Shown here piece after piece: positions 11,252 through 42,691 of a stretch of 64,000 nucleotides of DNA. Under the pieces are notes generated by a model. The model was not told the DNA's origin and made no database searches. It saw nothing but the letters and a program-made list of their open reading frames with translations. The stretch is taken from positions 3,303-67,302 of IMG/VR virus record IMGVR_UViG_3300031901_000001; one strand, 5' to 3'. This stretch comes from a virus (taxonomy: Duplodnaviria > Caudoviricetes). The translations under genes and the position numbers were made by a program. Every line of letters begins with the position of its first letter. Position 1 is the stretch's first letter.

Positions 11252-12325
11252 TTAGTCATCGCTGACGCGGTCCGAGGCATCCCGTTTGTGACTTTGGTCC
11301 TCAGCGGTATAGTGAGCCTTGATAACGAAGTCTACATCGTTCCCATGGACTTCCGCTTTGCAGATAGCCTGATAGTCACACATGCGGCAACCCCAACCGA
11401 TAGTCCTTGGTTGATCGCCTCTGTGGAGGTCGTGTATCTCCTTGGCGGTCTGAACAAAGTCATTCCATATGCTATCAACTACTCGAGGACGAACGGGCGC
11501 GAATACGCGGACAAAGCGTGTCGACCGATTTTCTTTTGCGTCAGTCAGCAGCTTTGTATACTGCTTCTTATCATGGCCTTCCTTTTTGATCCAGGCCTTG
11601 ATTGCTGAAGGCAGGGAGTCAATCCTAGCCTGAGATACCTTGCCTGTTTTTGTCAGCATCCCGGGAACCATTAACGGTTTACTGCTGATATAATCCCACA
11701 GGACGCCGTCCAATGAAGGACCCCCAACCATCTCCATTGCACGGATATAGGTAGCGCCTTGGACTGAACGCCAACGGTCTTCTTCGCTCGGTTGACGCTT
11801 AAATGTCTTATGCTCCTCAAGCCACTTGAGTTTATTCGCTTTGACCATCGAGTCTATTCGACCCGTAAACCAAAGCCCGTCCTCGAGCTCTATCCGGAAT
11901 TCATGCTCAGACTTACGACCCTTGAACTCGATAGGCTTGAGGCTTCCCTCGTAGTGATCGAAGTAGTCCTTCATGATAAGGCGGATGTCCTCGATGATGT
12001 CGCCATACATCTCTCGTTCCTTTCGGAACATCTTGCCTTCTTCAAGATCGATTTTCTTCAAGACCTTGAAGGCATCCTGACCCTCGAAATCTGCCTCGAG
12101 CATTTCATGAACAATGCCGCCGAAGGCAAAAGGCCTCCGACGACGCTTGGGAACAATCTGCAAGATATACTTATAGTAGAACATCTTGCGGCACTTACGC
12201 CAGGCGTTTACCTTAGATTGGCTGACATTGATATAGCCTTCGGGGCTGACTATGCTGCCATGGTCGTGACCCGGTGATGCCTTAGGCGTACTCGATTTCG
12301 ATGTCTTTTTGCTTGACTTCGCCAT
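11252..12325 (-). CDS. PD-(D/E)xK exonuclease, Cas4/AddB-like
   Basis: S.SK..AW..C, FG..VHEMLE, GRID..EHKT, C..C.Y..IC Fe-S staple. Confidence 0.85.
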   Translation of the reverse strand: MAKSSKKTSKSSTPKASPGHDHGSIVSPEGYINVSQSKVNAWRKCRKMFYYKYILQIVPKRRRRPFAFGGIVHEMLEADFEGQDAFKVLKKIDLEEGKMFRKEREMYGDIIEDIRLIMKDYFDHYEGSLKPIEFKGRKSEHEFRIELEDGLWFTGRIDSMVKANKLKWLEEHKTFKRQPSEEDRWRSVQGATYIRAMEMVGGPSLDGVLWDYISSKPLMVPGMLTKTGKVSQARIDSLPSAIKAWIKKEGHDKKQYTKLLTDAKENRSTRFVRVFAPVRPRVVDSIWNDFVQTAKEIHDLHRGDQPRTIGWGCRMCDYQAICKAEVHGNDVDFVIKAHYTAEDQSHKRDASDRVSDD

Positions 12326-23549: not shown

Positions 23550-24379
23550 GCGACATCGAGAAGAAAAAGGAACGCATCAAGAAGCTTCTCGCGTTCGCCG
23601 CCGGCAATCACAACAGTGAAGAGGAGGCGGCCAATGCAATGCGTATGGCTGCCGGCCTTGCAACGTCAATAGGCATCGAGCTTGACTCGCTCAGATCGAA
23701 GGATGCACCGATTCCGAAGGCCGTATTGAAGAGCAGCCTCACGAGCCTCAAGGTATATGAGTCTTATTGCGCTGAGGCGGCGGGTGTTCTCTACGGCTGC
23801 GAGTGTAGCGCACCGAACTTCGGCAAGCACGGCTACTGGTTCGTTGGGCGTGAAGAGAACATTGAGCTCGCTGAGCAAACGATGCTGTGGCTGGTGCAAC
23901 AAGTCGAGGCGCTTTACAAGATCGCTTTGCCTCGCGGCCTGTCGAAACGTGATCGTGCCGAGTTCCGAGGCTCATTCAAGGATGCCTGTGGTCAACGGTT
24001 ATACCATCGAGCTTATGACCTCATGAGGAAGATGAAGACTGACGAGCAAACTGCTCAAGCTACCACAGGCTCGAATGCCCTTGTCGTAGCTGGTCACTTC
24101 AAGCAACTTCAGTCCGAGGTTGAAGCCTATTGGGAAGAGAAGTATTACGCTCCCGCTCGCAAGCGAGCCGAAGAAGCTCAAGAAAAGCGGCAAAACATGC
24201 TTGCTGCCATGACCGAAGCCGAACGGGTTAAATTCCTTGAGAAAGAGGCGAAGGAACAGGCAAAGGAAGACGCCAAGCCTTACAGACTACGTAAAGGTAG
24301 ATCCATGAAGATCGGGTTCGGTACTCAGGCTGGGCGGGAAGCTGGTGATCGAGTTCAGCTGAGACAAGAAATTAAGTAG
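23546..24379 (+). CDS. DUF2786-family protein
   Basis: RIKKLLAFA..EEEAANAM..A N-terminus and G..AGREAG C-terminus. Confidence 0.8.
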   Translation: MSDIEKKKERIKKLLAFAAGNHNSEEEAANAMRMAAGLATSIGIELDSLRSKDAPIPKAVLKSSLTSLKVYESYCAEAAGVLYGCECSAPNFGKHGYWFVGREENIELAEQTMLWLVQQVEALYKIALPRGLSKRDRAEFRGSFKDACGQRLYHRAYDLMRKMKTDEQTAQATTGSNALVVAGHFKQLQSEVEAYWEEKYYAPARKRAEEAQEKRQNMLAAMTEAERVKFLEKEAKEQAKEDAKPYRLRKGRSMKIGFGTQAGREAGDRVQLRQEIK

Positions 24380-24384
24380 AACGA

Positions 24385-24418
24385 AGTAGTTGCAAGCATT
24401 ATGCCATAATCGTATTAT
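24385..24418 (+). promoter_or_regulatory. Early promoter (TGCCAT class)
   Basis: AGTAG-TTGCAA-N6-TGCCAT-N5-TATTAT. Confidence 0.7.
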
Positions 24419-24460
24419 GATTGCATCAAAACGCAATGACGCGCATTGATGGAGGATACA

Positions 24461-24688: not shown

Positions 24689-25202
24689 CATAGTTATCTA
24701 TGCCACCGGTAAGCGTAAGGGTGATGAACACCCTCGCACTTATACGCCGATCTTTTCTTCAGCTTCACAGGCTCGAGCCTGGTTCCGTAAATTCATCAAT
24801 AACCAAGAGCACTACTGGGAAGACGATAGGACCATTGTCCTTGAAGCTGAGTTCACCATGAAGCTTCGATGCGATAATTGGCAAGCTGTCTTCACCGAGT
24901 CTGGTGATGAAGTCTTACCGATTGCCATGAACTATATGATCCTTCGGTTCAAATATGGCGTATGGGAAGACCAACCGAAACCCGCTGAGGTTATCGTCAA
25001 GCCTTCAAAGGTGACCGTTGAGGTTAAGACAAAGACCACAGTGCCGGAGGGGTATATCTCGATCTCTGAACTCTGCAAAGGAACCAACATCGCCCCGACA
25101 AACGCTCGAGCTATCCTTCGAACTGTTCGAGAGAAACCGCCGTATGGCTGGGCCTTTGATCCAAACGAAATACCCGCAATCCGTAAGCTTATAGGTGCTT
25201 GA
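24681..25202 (+). CDS. Protein with C-terminal HTH/W domain
   Basis: YISISELC..NIAPTNARAILR..YGWAF. Confidence 0.75.
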   Translation: MTNIVIYATGKRKGDEHPRTYTPIFSSASQARAWFRKFINNQEHYWEDDRTIVLEAEFTMKLRCDNWQAVFTESGDEVLPIAMNYMILRFKYGVWEDQPKPAEVIVKPSKVTVEVKTKTTVPEGYISISELCKGTNIAPTNARAILRTVREKPPYGWAFDPNEIPAIRKLIGA

Positions 25203-25494
25203 AATGACCGTCGCCCATTATCGCCGCAAGACTCTCTCCTGCTGGAGGGTGGATACTTCCCACATGGTGTCGGTTCCCAAATACTTCGAGGTTACTTCAC
25301 TTGAAGAGCTGAAGAGGAAGGTTGTCAAGATTGCTGACAGCAAGGACCGCCGGCCGATTATCGGATTGCTCGAATACTCACACATTATTCGCAACGGTCA
25401 GGAAATGCTGTTGGTCCATTTCCGCCATCACAAGACCAACAAGAAGATGCGCTTCATGCGCCTGGTTAGGGAGACTGCTCATGCAATTCACTGA
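25195..25494 (+). CDS. Hypothetical protein
   Basis: Overlapping starts/stops within the operon. Confidence 0.65.
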   Translation: MLEMTVAHYRRKTLSCWRVDTSHMVSVPKYFEVTSLEELKRKVVKIADSKDRRPIIGLLEYSHIIRNGQEMLLVHFRHHKTNKKMRFMRLVRETAHAIH

Positions 25495-26029: not shown

Positions 26030-26265
26030 GTGATATACGATGCGCGATTGCGTCGTTTGATCGCATGAAATGGGCGTATGAACGAGGATTTGGGGCATGC
26101 TTAGCGCGTACCGGAGGCGTGTCATGCATCATTGCACGTTCAACAAACATCGATCGCCTGAAACGCCTTAAAATTCTCGTCAAGATTTAAGCAGAACTGA
26201 GTGGTTGCGTCACGGATGCCATGCGTTCATTGTGCATGTGTCGATGCAATAACGCAATGACGATG
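26030..26265. repeat. Periodic CC/CT/GG/AG-free blocks, degenerate copy of 41527-41781
   Basis: Blocks 26030-26072, 26117-26157 and 26204/26220-26265; shares GTCGTTTGATCG, TCGCATGAAA and ACGCCTTRAAATYCTCGT with the 41.6 kb locus. Confidence 0.6.
26200..26233 (+). promoter_or_regulatory. Early promoter (TGCCAT class)
   Basis: AGTGG-TTGCGT-N6-TGCCAT-N5-CATTGT. Confidence 0.6.
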
Positions 26266-26275
26266 GAGAACGATC

Positions 26276-26568: not shown

Positions 26569-26775
26569 ATGACCGAAGAACAAAAGGCTAAAGTCCGTCG
26601 TGAACTCATCGCTGAGCTTCATCTCCACAGGACGATGGAACCGAAGCTTAACAAGCTCTGGGAACTCGCTGACTCTTGGCATTCCGATGTCATGGCTACT
26701 CGAACTGCCGATGTTGATCGAGAAGAATATCGGGAGATTGTTCGTCAACTCGTAGCCTTCGGAAGGATATTTTGA
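26569..26775 (+). CDS. Hypothetical protein
   Basis: ATG after GGGGG SD-like run. Confidence 0.65.
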   Translation: MTEEQKAKVRRELIAELHLHRTMEPKLNKLWELADSWHSDVMATRTADVDREEYREIVRQLVAFGRIF

Positions 26776-26781
26776 GAGTTG

Positions 26782-26815
26782 AGCAGTTGCATCGCGGTTG
26801 CCATACGCATATGAT
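26782..26815 (+). promoter_or_regulatory. Early promoter (TGCCAT class)
   Basis: AGCAG-TTGCAT-N6-TGCCAT-N5-TATGAT. Confidence 0.7.
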
Positions 26816-26846
26816 GATTGCATCAACGCAACAACGCGAGGATGAC

Positions 26847-27101
26847 ATGAACAACGAATATCTCGATCACCTTACCGCTCACCTCGAAATCGAGCTCAAG
26901 CGGTATTACCCTGACTTGACATCGCTCGAGCTTTCATTTGCCGACGATGCAATCGTGCTCACCTTCACCACCGATCCTGACCGTTCGATACCGCTCACCT
27001 TATCTCAAATCAACGCGGGTGAGTCCGATGCCGATTGGTTCGTGTTCGTGACCGACTTGGGCACTCCTTTGACTATGCCCCTCTACCTCGAGGAGGGTTG
27101 A
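26847..27101 (+). CDS. Hypothetical acidic protein
   Basis: SD GAGG before ATG 26847. Confidence 0.7.
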   Translation: MNNEYLDHLTAHLEIELKRYYPDLTSLELSFADDAIVLTFTTDPDRSIPLTLSQINAGESDADWFVFVTDLGTPLTMPLYLEEG

Positions 27102-27103
27102 CC

Positions 27104-27586
27104 ATGGCCAAGGTTTATAAGCTGCCAACAAAATCTTCTCGGAAATATCGCGGGAAATATCCTACTCGTATTCATCATGCCTCATGGGGAGGACGAGAAG
27201 AATGGCTCGTGGCCAAGTATTTCCCTGATATGAAATACACCATTCACATCGAGATGAATAACGGCGACCGTTACATCGCGGATGCCGATGAGCTGCTTCT
27301 CATCTTCCCGATGATCGGTGGTATGGGCACGACTTCTTCCCGTATCCTTTACACGGATGCAATAGCCATTGTGAATGCGGCTACGGATATGGGTGAGCTG
27401 AGATACAAGGCTTGGCTCCGAGATGTTCAGGCCGCCAGGACCCTGTGGGACAGTGATCGTATCCGAGAGCTGCAGTATCAAAAGACTCAGACATCCGGTC
27501 ATCAGGCTCGGGCAAGGATCGAGGAGCAAATGATAGCGTATGTCAAAGCCGGGGTTGAGGAGATGAACAAATGTTCCGCTTTCTAA
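27104..27586 (+). CDS. Hypothetical protein
   Basis: SD GGAGGG before ATG 27104. Confidence 0.75.
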   Translation: MAKVYKLPTKSSRKYRGKYPTRIHHASWGGREEWLVAKYFPDMKYTIHIEMNNGDRYIADADELLLIFPMIGGMGTTSSRILYTDAIAIVNAATDMGELRYKAWLRDVQAARTLWDSDRIRELQYQKTQTSGHQARARIEEQMIAYVKAGVEEMNKCSAF

Positions 27587-27717
27587 GAGTCTTCCTACCG
27601 TCAACCTACACCTGCTTGCATGAGAAGCGTATCCGCCAAGCCTCAAAGGACGGCGATAACTTCCGTTGCGTGAAATGTGAAACCCGACTGGAGAACAATA
27701 ATGGGCCGCGCCTTTGA
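27571..27717 (+). CDS. Small putative Zn-ribbon protein (48 aa)
   Basis: SD GAGGAG; C.H..CVKC; translated by hand. Confidence 0.55.
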   Translation: MFRFLRVFLPSTYTCLHEKRIRQASKDGDNFRCVKCETRLENNNGPRL

Positions 27718-27844
27718 ATATGCTATCTTGATGGTCATGGTGGGTGTGTTTTTGCTCCTAGGTTCCACCTTCTTAAATGCTGCAGCCACGTCCATCAAGC
27801 AATCCGCCGCCATGATCGAAAGGGCATCGGCGAGAACAGAGTAG
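27701..27844 (+). CDS. Flp/Tad pilin-like peptide lacking a leader (47 aa)
   Basis: MGRAFEYAILMVMVGVFLLLGSTFLNAAATSIKQSAAMIERASARTE; SD GGAG 7 nt upstream; translated by hand. Confidence 0.65.
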   Translation: MGRAFEYAILMVMVGVFLLLGSTFLNAAATSIKQSAAMIERASARTE

Positions 27845-27873
27845 TTGTATGCGGTATGCCATCATCATATGAT
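27840..27873 (+). promoter_or_regulatory. Early promoter (TGCCAT class)
   Basis: AGTAG-TTGTAT-N6-TGCCAT-N5-TATGAT. Confidence 0.7.
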
Positions 27874-27917
27874 GTTTGTGTTGATGCAATGACGCACACA
27901 ACGCGAACGGAGTTACG

Positions 27918-28364
27918 ATGATGCCGCTTTCATTCCCGCTCATGATGTCTTATGATGACATCGCAAATCTCGAAGGAGCTGCCGATGCATTCGCATGGGA
28001 TGACTCTTACGATGACACGCTGCCCGAATACATCTCCGACTATTCTTCTGCCTTCCACAGCTGCGAGAAGCTCAAGCAATACCTTGAATGCATCGGCTAT
28101 CATGTCGAGTCTGCTCCTCACGGGAAAGTCTTGATCCTCAACGAAAACGCTTTGCACATGGCTGCTGCGTTGTTCGCTACCATTCAATACGAATACGACG
28201 CCACCGATCTTCCCGATTTGCCTCACCCCACAATCGCCGGCGCTACTCAACCTGCTACCTGGCAGCTCTTCGGCCTTGGGGGTGACGATGATGTCGACTA
28301 CTGCGGGACTCAGCCGTCATGTCTCACCGACCTGCTGCTCGCTCACCTCTCGAAGGAGGCATGA
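27918..28364 (+). CDS. Hypothetical acidic protein
   Basis: SD GGAG; follows promoter. Confidence 0.75.
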   Translation: MMPLSFPLMMSYDDIANLEGAADAFAWDDSYDDTLPEYISDYSSAFHSCEKLKQYLECIGYHVESAPHGKVLILNENALHMAAALFATIQYEYDATDLPDLPHPTIAGATQPATWQLFGLGGDDDVDYCGTQPSCLTDLLLAHLSKEA

Positions 28365-28846
28365 TCATGAAGCTTGAATATACCACAGATCAACATCAGC
28401 CATACTTCATGGAGATTATTCCCCCTTGGAGTGAAGACTTGATGTATATCATCGGTGAAGCCGCTGGCGGCGGTGATATGCAAGAGTTCGAGATCTGCCT
28501 TAACCACAATCAGTGGACTCAAGCGAAGCAGCTCAAAGTTGTGCGGCGGAAGGAGGGTGAGTCTGTCTTTGAGCACTGGGAGCGCACAGTCCTCGAGGCT
28601 CATGGCATCGTCTATGACGACTGGCTCAAGCACATTACTCAGAGGCAGCGCAACAAGAAGCTGCAAGAACATATGACGCAGCTCGAGACTATCATCGAGA
28701 ACTTGGAACGCTATCACGGAACTACGCTTGACATCGCTGAAGGAACTGTGACTGACGACGACCTGCAGAAGCTGACACGCGCCTTACAATCCTTGAGCGA
28801 AGGTGAAGACCTGCTCGATGATGTCTACTCCTCACACGGCGGTTAG
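28361..28846 (+). CDS. Hypothetical protein with C-terminal coiled coil
   Basis: SD AAGGAGG, coupled to upstream stop. Confidence 0.75.
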   Translation: MIMKLEYTTDQHQPYFMEIIPPWSEDLMYIIGEAAGGGDMQEFEICLNHNQWTQAKQLKVVRRKEGESVFEHWERTVLEAHGIVYDDWLKHITQRQRNKKLQEHMTQLETIIENLERYHGTTLDIAEGTVTDDDLQKLTRALQSLSEGEDLLDDVYSSHGG

Positions 28847-29424
28847 TCTTCATAGTCTAATATACCCCAGTCTGACGGCAGGGTCCAGGTGCTTTCTTTG
28901 TCTGCACCGAAGCCCTGCTGTACTTTTATGCAGCCAAGGGCATTCGCTGCTTTCCGGAATACTTCTGAATGTATATGCTTATACTTCTTTTTAAGCTTCT
29001 TCGGCGTTGTATAGCCCTGAGGTGATTTTATTATCTCCGTGATCAAGAGCTTTTCTGCCTGCTTGTAGTCTGTGGTGATTATATGATCACCATTACGGAC
29101 AAGATACTTGAACTCGACTGAGAGCTGTTTATTCATGTCCAATAGGATGTTCTCGTAGGTCCGTGTATGCTTGCTTCGGTACTTCGAAGCTTGTGTGTGC
29201 AGCTCTCGGTTAGATAAGATAGCATAATAGATCACGTAGGGCCAATACCACTCAGTCGGCGGTGTGTGATACCATCTTTTAATTATCGGCCTGGAGACTC
29301 CTAGCAAGCGGCACATTGGACTGATCTTGCCTTTACATAGTCGGTCTAGGGCTAAGAATGTAGCCTTAAAAGCTGTGATGTCTATCTGTGGAGATAATGC
29401 TTTCGATCGAGTCTTAGCGGACAT
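28843..29424 (-). CDS. DNA-binding protein: Cro-like HTH plus wHTH resembling the primase-helicase C-terminus
   Basis: MCRLLGVSRPIIKRW; FRKAANALG.IK..G...WTL vs IERAAKRMG.KVK..G..WTL. Confidence 0.7.
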   Translation of the reverse strand: MSAKTRSKALSPQIDITAFKATFLALDRLCKGKISPMCRLLGVSRPIIKRWYHTPPTEWYWPYVIYYAILSNRELHTQASKYRSKHTRTYENILLDMNKQLSVEFKYLVRNGDHIITTDYKQAEKLLITEIIKSPQGYTTPKKLKKKYKHIHSEVFRKAANALGCIKVQQGFGADKESTWTLPSDWGILDYED

Positions 29425-33996: not shown

Positions 33997-34202
33997 GGAT
34001 CAGGCTTCACAACAAGATGGGATACTTGGACTTTAATATCCCTGAGGATCGACAAGATGCCGTATCTCAAGCCGGTACCCTTCACTACATGGCTCGAGCC
34101 TACACCTTTCGAGGTTTAGCGGGAGGCAAGCTTCTCTATGACGAGGCCGGCCCTGCTGTGGTATTGAATGATGGATGGCTGGATCGGGAGGTGATACGAT
34201 GA
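33993..34202 (+). CDS. Hypothetical protein
   Basis: Coupled ATGA overlap. Confidence 0.6.
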   Translation: MRIRLHNKMGYLDFNIPEDRQDAVSQAGTLHYMARAYTFRGLAGGKLLYDEAGPAVVLNDGWLDREVIR

Positions 34203-34378
34203 AGTCAGCAATTATTCTTGGGGTCTTGTTCTTTGTTGCTTCATTGACATTGGATAGCGGTATCCTTAGCCCGAAACTTGTCCTAGCCATTATGACCCTT
34301 GTCTCATACTTTGTTGGGGATCAACGGTTATGACTGTCAAGATACTCAGGGCTATGCCAAAGAGTGGCAGCAATGCTA
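34199..34378 (+). CDS. Small 2-TM membrane protein
   Basis: SD GGAGG, ATGA overlap; translated by hand. Confidence 0.5.
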
Positions 34379-34599: not shown

Positions 34600-34881
34600 A
34601 TGGAATTGGGGGTTGTAATGATAGTGATTGGAGTCTTGCTTATGTGCTTGACTCTTTTCATATCGAACAGGGACTTGAAAGCCCGTGTCCATAAATTGGA
34701 TAGAAAGGTAAGTGAGCATTTCAACTGTCACCACAGGCAAGTCTATGATCGGTTACCCGACTATGAGGATCAAGGACCAGCCATGTGGATTGACAAGTAT
34801 CAACCATGGCCTACAAGGAGTATCCGCAATGATGATACCGCCCGTGATAAGGCGGGGACATCCTACAGAGCCTCAGCCTAA
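34600..34881 (+). CDS. Single-TM membrane protein
   Basis: SD GGAGG; N-terminal hydrophobic helix. Confidence 0.65.
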   Translation: MELGVVMIVIGVLLMCLTLFISNRDLKARVHKLDRKVSEHFNCHHRQVYDRLPDYEDQGPAMWIDKYQPWPTRSIRNDDTARDKAGTSYRASA

Positions 34882-37297: not shown

Positions 37298-37551
37298 TCG
37301 AGTATTTAATGGTAGCGGCGCTCTGGGGTTGGTGCGGCATGGGAATTGTCCGTCCTCATTGGAAGAGCATCGTTCAAAAGATGAAGGCCCAGGACATCTC
37401 AGCTTATAGCCTAAGGCTAAAGCCTCACAACTCAGATATGGATTATGCCATAGTTCGGATAGTCTGCATTCTCTTCGTGATCGTATGGCCGGTCTTTCTG
37501 TTTATCTTCGCTTTTGCGGTATATAGGAAGTATCGAGAACGTGGGAGTTGA
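37294..37551 (+). CDS. 2-TM membrane protein
   Basis: Two hydrophobic segments. Confidence 0.7.
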   Translation: MIEYLMVAALWGWCGMGIVRPHWKSIVQKMKAQDISAYSLRLKPHNSDMDYAIVRIVCILFVIVWPVFLFIFAFAVYRKYRERGS

Positions 37552-42214: not shown

Positions 42215-42691
42215 ATGACTGCATTTCTTCGTTTGCCGCCGCTACACCCGGAACGGGCGATAGAATGGCTAATCGGGATGATCGGGTTATCATGGGGAGG
42301 TGTAGTCCTTTCCTTTACCCGAATGTTTGAGTCTCAGCCAGCTCTTTATTCTGGCATGTTGTCGATCCTTCCTCAACCTTTATGGGGTATGGCTGCCTTC
42401 GCTAACGGTCTTCTTCGACTGGGGGCATTGTATATCAATGGCAATCACTTCCGAACACCCTCGATAAGAATGGTCACGAGCTTCTTATCTATGTTGATAT
42501 GGTTTTCTGTCTTAGTCGGTCTTCTTAAAACAGGCATTCCTCAACCGGGATGGGCTATCTACCCCTGCCTACTCCTCGGCGACCTGTGGTCTGTTTACCG
42601 TGCATCGCAAGATGCCTACGTCAGTAATACCCTACACAAGAAACTCAGGACAGTCGTTGGGGGTACTGCAGGTGTCCACAGAGGTCGTTAA
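42215..42691 (+). CDS. 4-TM membrane protein (possible accessory holin-like)
   Basis: Four hydrophobic helices. Confidence 0.75.
   Translation: MTAFLRLPPLHPERAIEWLIGMIGLSWGGVVLSFTRMFESQPALYSGMLSILPQPLWGMAAFANGLLRLGALYINGNHFRTPSIRMVTSFLSMLIWFSVLVGLLKTGIPQPGWAIYPCLLLGDLWSVYRASQDAYVSNTLHKKLRTVVGGTAGVHRGR

Follow-up and report, generated by a model that had tools for sequence, protein, structure and literature searches.

In the genome of a phage related to viruses of Brevundimonas we find a small gene which, in our reading, codes for a phage-specific protein of 47 residues. This protein would span the host inner membrane as a single helix and dock on an inner-membrane complex of the host, and it is not a homologue of the Flp pilins; we put the probability of this reading at about 0.6. 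The family that the peptide represents is conserved and so far undescribed, and its N-terminal motif is sharply constrained. Gene callers routinely overlook small phage membrane peptides, although some of these act as potent switches of envelope machines in the host. The initial annotation had interpreted the open reading frame as a leaderless mimic of a Flp/Tad pilin. Of that interpretation the gene, the register that a Glu-Tyr pair would take after removal of Met and the pilin-like length have held up; a similarity to Flp pilins by profile or structure has not.

The window, i.e., the complete stretch of 64,000 nucleotides that was analysed, corresponds to bases 3303-67302 of an IMG/VR virus record of 67,302 bp with direct terminal repeats at its ends. 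Matches to PHROG families identify a helicase, a family-A DNA polymerase and a primase-helicase as well as terminase, portal, capsid and tape-measure proteins. Its major capsid protein shares 72% identity with those of the Brevundimonas phages vB_BpoS-Polewnik and vB_BpoS-Strzyga. With Polewnik there is synteny across the replication and structural modules, where amino-acid identity lies at 30-73%. Brevundimonas, a genus whose genomes encode Flp pilins, is the host of the nearest cultured relatives. The G+C content amounts to 51% in the window phage, 52-61% in its relatives and 59% in Polewnik, as against 68-71% in Brevundimonas, the host genus of Polewnik; the lineage as a whole (window; L001-L003, L124-L129) spans 51-61% and stays below the host of its cultured members. 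Between about 21.4 and 45 kb, in the interval from primase to terminase, a run of small plus-strand genes is located, most of which are unique to the window phage. The sole minus-strand gene of the neighbourhood (28843-29424), homologous to POLEWNIK_00150 and to a gene of the related locus L125, provides a synteny anchor for this accessory block. Four further small ORFs of the block, all on the plus strand (34199-34333, 34600-34881, 37438-37551 and 42470-42691), each encode one strong hydrophobic helix; none of the four resembles the 47-aa peptide.

A tightly packed unit ends with the peptide gene (Table 1). The 47-aa ORF with a good Shine-Dalgarno sequence that had been annotated is reproduced by direct reading with the same translation. 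A 183-aa gene ends at 27586, and a 48-aa ORF overlaps both the stop of this gene and the start of the peptide gene, the latter by 17 nt. The overlap with both neighbours makes translational coupling likely, and in translation the 48-aa ORF and the peptide gene probably constitute a tiny coupled pair. The product of the 48-aa ORF is zinc-ribbon-like, with a weak match to Pfam zf-C2HC_3 (E 0.035). An in-frame GTG at 27677 was considered as the start of a prepilin-like leader and rejected: it has no Shine-Dalgarno sequence, the homologues begin at the position of the ATG, and the Gly of such a leader would sit four, not five, residues ahead of the Glu.

A promoter-like element of about 65 nt is present in four copies, two of them at 24375-24450 and 26190-26270, the other two on either side of the peptide gene (Table 1). 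Their alignment shows the layout AGAAC.GAGTAG-TTGCA/TTGTA, a spacer containing TGCCAT, TATGAT/TATTAT, and then GCAATGACGC. These repeats divide the accessory block into short units; a simple sigma-70 scan called none of the four copies. In the copy directly 3' of the peptide gene the upstream box AGAAC.GAGTAG-TTG holds the last four codons of the peptide gene and its stop. The peptide gene would stand at the end of one of several units with similar promoters in the primase-terminase accessory block, would probably be coupled in translation, and would presumably be expressed early in infection.

Table 1. The peptide gene, its parts and its immediate surroundings (window coordinates)
Feature	Position	Strand	Evidence
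Promoter-like copy, probable start of the transcription unit ending with the peptide gene	26772-26850	+	four-copy alignment
Upstream 48-aa ORF, C-x-H ... C-x-x-C	27571-27717	+	codon test positive; weak zinc-finger match
Shine-Dalgarno sequence GGAG, 7 nt before the ATG	27690-27693	+	direct sequence reading
47-aa ORF, small single-pass membrane peptide	27701-27844	+	ATG 27701, TAG 27842-27844; homologues P0001, P0002, P0005; AlphaFold2
N-terminal motif G-R-A-F-E-Y, residues 2-7	27704-27721	+	alignments
Hydrophobic helix, residues 8-29, conserved LM-MVG and LLLGS	27722-27787	+	hydropathy scan, alignment
Polar, amphipathic tail, residues 30-47, conserved S..SA.MI	27788-27841	+	alignment
Next promoter-like copy, directly 3' of the peptide gene	27830-27905 (to about 27920)	+	four-copy alignment

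The homologues of the peptide are the principal evidence for a gene. A phmmer search of 1.84 billion protein representatives returned proteins of 46 and 49 aa (E-values 5e-10 and 3e-9); another one, of 47 aa, came from a profile search. All three (P0001, P0002 and P0005) are 57-65% identical to the window peptide over the full length and without internal gaps. They originate from contigs of 1.1, 11 and 55 kb (Logan and ENA assemblies); they were compared as proteins, and the genes had been called independently on these three other assemblies. Across the four close homologues G2, R3, F5, E6, Y7, L10, M11, M13, V14, G15, L18-S22, S31, S35, A36, M38 and I39 are invariant, and the substitutions are conservative (I/V/L/M, S/T, K/R). 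In a codon-frame log-likelihood test the frame of the peptide leads its two alternatives on the same strand by 13 and 30 bits, margins that were not reached by any out-of-frame control piece; an antisense ORF scores similarly, and the test leaves the strand undecided. AlphaFold2, supplied with the four-sequence alignment, predicts one helix comprising residues 2-46 with a pLDDT of 90.7.

Relatives are scarce. Scans with the family alignment found none in IMG/VR, in JGI metagenomes or in one genome per species across 185,579 prokaryote species. A word-index homologue search with the peptide alone, a tblastn search of a phage collection with the peptide and a megablast search with the region gave no match, and the exact sequence of the window peptide is absent from a collection of 15 billion proteins. 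Neighbouring genes used as bait in IMG/VR retrieved nothing close; the primase retrieved one contig (L003), which ends before the locus. Because species genomes, IMG/VR and JGI metagenomes hold no relatives, the family is to be viewed as rare and known from phage or metagenome contigs only. That the gene is real and of this limited distribution we regard as highly probable.

A second type of peptide was encountered in the same slot. With a conserved 277-aa early protein as bait six related IMG/VR loci were collected, one of which (L126) contains a 45-aa ORF (11695-11832) that starts with MKTIEY and has AGGAG 8 nt upstream. This ORF is flanked by homologues of the window genes 25195-25494 and 27918-28364, i.e., it occupies the syntenic interval of the window peptide. 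It corresponds to the called protein P0006, to which a relative, P0007, is 84% identical. In L126 (11695-12002, plus strand) the 45-aa peptide is start/stop-coupled (ATGA) to an ORF of 57 aa with two hydrophobic helices, and the two possibly form a two-gene membrane module; no counterpart of the 57-aa ORF adjoins the window peptide. Between the window type and the L126 type there is no significant sequence similarity (28% identity; hhalign P 0.049), and a homology of the two finds no support in the sequences; it would be argued from position and architecture. Different genes are found in this slot in L125 and L127, which identifies the peptide as a sporadic accessory gene. A Glu-Tyr at the start of the helix is almost the sole feature common to all six peptides.

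Methionine aminopeptidase removes the initiator Met before Gly and keeps it before Lys or Met. According to this rule the predicted processed ends are G-R-A-F-E5-Y6 for the window peptide and P0001, and M-K-T-I-E5-Y6 for P0006 and P0007. Removal before Gly and retention before Lys would thus bring two different N-termini into the same E5-Y6 register. If the rule holds, the register is realised in four of the six peptides; P0002 (MGGRVFEY) would end up at E6-Y7, and in P0005 (MMGRAFEY) the register is ambiguous, as it depends on the Met that is used. The initial annotation had proposed the end G1-R2-A3-F4-E5-Y6 after loss of Met. The proposal stands in that the register is reached if Met is removed and the Glu-Tyr is kept in all six peptides; P0002 breaks the exact register.

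The frequency of such a register was determined in a null set, to which ORF/start combinations were admitted if they comprised 30-80 aa and contained a hydrophobic stretch at processed positions 7-22. E5-Y6 occurs in two of 124 combinations from ten phage loci, exclusively in the window ORF and the L126 peptide, with about 0.1 expected, and in none of 280 combinations from about 1 Mb of bacterial loci. In view of these counts pure chance is an unlikely origin of the motif, and the Glu-Tyr is under selection. Since the hypothesis of a mimic was built on this very motif, the motif cannot double as a test of mimicry.

Real Flp pilins were assembled for comparison. A degenerate DNA pattern for T-A-I-E-Y-G-L-I led to 120 bacterial loci, Brevundimonas and Caulobacter among them, and 139 distinct mature alphaproteobacterial Flp sequences were extracted, mostly of 39-50 aa. 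Their profile reads A-T-A-I-E-Y-G-L-I, followed by hydrophobic positions 10-24, Gly25 (0.78), Leu28, an aromatic residue at 32 (0.85), Val/Ile35 and Leu/Val/Ile39. A position matrix was built from 138 alphaproteobacterial Flp pilins. According to the cryo-EM structure of the Tad pilus of Caulobacter, a single helix of 45 residues makes up the mature pilin; Glu19 and Tyr20 of the prepilin, equivalent to E5 and Y6, take part in a hydrogen-bond network at the core of the pilus and are needed for assembly, not for processing (PMC11067988). The mature layout given by the initial annotation, x-x-x-x-E5-Y6 plus a hydrophobic helix, agrees with both the 139 sequences and this structure.

Flp genes are also present on viral contigs. 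When IMG/VR was scanned with the Flp alignment, 20 such contigs emerged (L131-L150, 9-65 kb), and in all 20 the gene has an ordinary leader ending in Gly. The leaders comprise 13-20 residues, after which the mature (A/V)TAIEY begins. A typical leader, e.g., in L136-L147, is M-K-K-L-F-S-K-L-x-R-D-E-S-G-A before TAIEY, and several are near-identical across contigs. They may represent pilin genes carried by phages or prophages, or else host DNA from the edges of prophages. Among the PHROG families none matches Flp pilins.

Membership of the peptides in the Flp family is rejected. Pfam Flp_Fap (PF04964) gave no match at E<=10, either for any of the six peptides or in a six-frame search of the phage, and the same search recognised three real Flp pilins with 69.4, 42.1 and 32.6 bits (curated cut-off 32.2). 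Our own Flp HMMs assign 0-3 bits to the peptides. A profile search of the PDB returned no pilin; the best match was a chance FEYAILM string in a membrane helix of Hrd1. In hhalign comparisons with the Flp alignments the proposed register was picked (AFEYAIL... over AIEYGLI...) with a probability of 3-8% and P-values of 0.013 and 0.0045 over 7-16 columns; with the mixed alignment of all six peptides just five columns align. When the matrix is anchored at Glu-Tyr and positions 7-39 are scored, the peptides obtain -10 to -22 bits (window peptide -12), real pilins of the training set +30 to +72 and independent IMG/VR pilins +43 to +64. Segment-preserving shuffles score much like the window type itself (P 0.31-0.85); in the L126 type the tail scores above the shuffles (P 0.002-0.01, with F32 and L39 in register) and the helix below them. 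By these scores the conserved Flp body as a whole (G7-L8-I9, hydrophobic positions 10-24, Gly25 and then L28/F32/V35/L39) is missing from the peptides, the tail of the L126 type alone standing out.

The window ORF possesses no leader ending in Gly(-1) for a TadV/CpaA-type peptidase, the ATG being directly 3' of the Shine-Dalgarno sequence, and no tad genes were found near the peptide gene. Foldseek with the lone helix returned nothing, the ESM Atlas only chance-level neighbours (up to 0.81; the Blr divisome peptide family at cosine 0.79), and PHROG no match better than E 0.05, with a chance-level holin PHROG at E 0.13. The size of 46 aa after Met removal and the single helix (2-46) do conform to a mature pilin; this feature is unspecific. 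Profile, matrix, Foldseek and ESM Atlas results taken together leave three points of likeness: an x-h-E-Y start, the chain length and the helical form. The Flp_Fap search suggested by the initial annotation gave no match, its positive controls did, and similarity to Flp is essentially absent from the Pfam, PDB profile, hhalign (3-8%), Foldseek and matrix comparisons, the very outcome that the initial annotation had named as contradicting its proposal.

What, then, might the peptide do? Judged by the distribution of charges, the short N-terminus with the invariant Arg3 would be located in the cytoplasm and the neutral-to-acidic tail in the periplasm. The strongest constraint acts on the N-proximal G-R-x-F-E-Y at the membrane boundary and on a glycine/small-residue face of the helix. 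The conserved motif and the small-residue face most likely form a surface for helix-helix docking on what may be a host inner-membrane complex. By docking the peptide could act as a factor of host takeover or superinfection exclusion, of the kind which phages encode as tiny membrane peptides.

A different task in the membrane, such as superinfection exclusion by blocking of injection, inhibition of cell division, or the action of a holin/antiholin-like or depolarising peptide, is unlikely. The early block does contain several further small membrane ORFs, and the L126 peptide is start/stop-coupled to the 57-aa ORF with its two helices; the locus is, however, far from the tail/lysis end, as judged by synteny with Polewnik, and this position rules out a holin of the lysis cassette. 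The database leads for such a task, i.e., the holin PHROG (E 0.13) and the Blr family (cosine 0.79), are at the level of noise. Further, a generic membrane peptide, be it in this reading or in our main one, provides no explanation for the strict conservation of precisely the Flp hallmark pair Glu-Tyr in two very divergent types.

Pilin mimicry is the most specific candidate mechanism and in our estimate an improbable one. It claims that the processed G-R-A-F-E5-Y6 and a helix of pilin length enable the peptide to join the host pilin pool without prepilin peptidase. It would then poison polymerisation, e.g., through the Arg at +2 in the would-be filament core, or else occupy the CpaG/CpaH platform, and we consider either route doubtful. 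The supposed outcome would be abolished pili and a block of pilus-dependent phages or of pilus sensing. Tad prepilin peptidases are not known to have an N-methyltransferase domain, and a leaderless copy would need no further modification. In its widest form the proposal sees in both the MGRAFEY... and the MKTIEY... types leaderless look-alikes of the mature pilin which preserve nothing beyond the needs of the pilus core, Glu5-Tyr6 on a 45-residue helix, by convergence or by a divergence so extreme that profiles cannot detect it, and which strip Tad pili during infection as poison subunits or platform blockers; to this, too, we attach a low probability.

Several observations speak for mimicry and several against it. 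Glu-Tyr is invariant in six of six peptides from two types which otherwise share almost nothing, and E5 and Y6 are assembly-critical core residues of the Caulobacter Tad pilus (PMC11067988); yet the hypothesis started from this motif, which consequently is not its test. Two N-termini arrive at E5-Y6 where chance predicts about 0.1 in phage loci, but P0002 would depart from the register and P0005 is equivocal. The processed length of 45-46 aa conforms to the 39-50 aa of the 139 Flp pilins and hhalign selects the exact register at the low P-values reported above, whereas the attached probability is 3-8% and profile similarity to Flp is lacking. The tail of the L126 type places F32 and L39 at Flp positions (P 0.002-0.01); positions 7-39 nevertheless remain at -10 to -22 bits (real pilins +30 to +72), shuffled versions of the window type score equally well, and Gly25 as well as the G-L-I after Glu-Tyr are absent. 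The host genus of the nearest cultured relatives encodes Flp, but all 20 Flp-like IMG/VR genes fetched carry normal leaders. Pilin mimicry is retained as a candidate because Glu-Tyr in register is otherwise unexplained and because the phage lineage infects Tad-piliated Caulobacteraceae.

The least probable view is that no gene exists and that a chance ORF in a 330-nt gap between two real genes has apparent homologues which are translated conserved regulatory DNA: the ORF has just 47 codons, its 3' end overlaps the conserved promoter-like box, the antisense ORF passes the codon test as well and the exact sequence is missing from 15 billion proteins, but gapless full-length protein matches at E 5e-10 with conservative substitutions, a good Shine-Dalgarno sequence, packing by start/stop overlap on the strand shared with all neighbours, and homologues predicted by independent gene callers on three other assemblies speak against it.

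Should mimicry nevertheless be true, the peptide would exemplify a peptidase-independent sabotage of Tad pili by a phage and supply a minimal tool for the role of Glu5-Tyr6 in assembly. Should it be false, the case cautions against inferring membership of a family from a two-residue hallmark on a membrane helix.

A comparison of the phage-specific membrane peptide with known systems delineates its position. With the Flp/Fap pilins (PF04964, e.g., Caulobacter PilA) the peptides of both types share a processed length of 45-46 aa (39-50 in Flp), a single α-helix, a hydrophobic residue followed by Glu-Tyr at presumed mature positions 4-6 (in four of the six, if the Met rule holds), and a hydrophobic segment at about 7-24 ahead of a polar amphipathic tail. 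Unlike Flp pilins they have no leader, no Gly(-1) cleavage site and no profile match (42-69 bits in real ones). They lack G-L-I after Glu-Tyr, the window type in addition lacks the Gly25/Leu28/Phe32/Val35 pattern, position 2 is Arg or Lys, and the gene belongs to an accessory block of a phage and has no tad/cpa genes beside it. The Flp prepilins from IMG/VR are likewise small genes on viral contigs and indicate that alphaproteobacterial phages or prophages carry pilin genes; they differ in that they have a leader and a body which scores +43 to +64, in contrast to the leaderless window peptide at -12.

A known counterpart in kind is PfsE of the Pseudomonas filamentous phage Pf4, a membrane peptide of 30 residues. 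PfsE binds PilC, the platform protein of the pilus, and shuts out phages that depend on pili (PMC8764522). PfsE differs by its length, its YAWGW motif and its origin from a filamentous prophage; the window peptide contains no Trp and has no sequence relation to it. Both are tiny phage peptides of the inner membrane with a short conserved motif that includes aromatic residues, and PfsE is the known case in which such a peptide switches off a type IV pilus machine.
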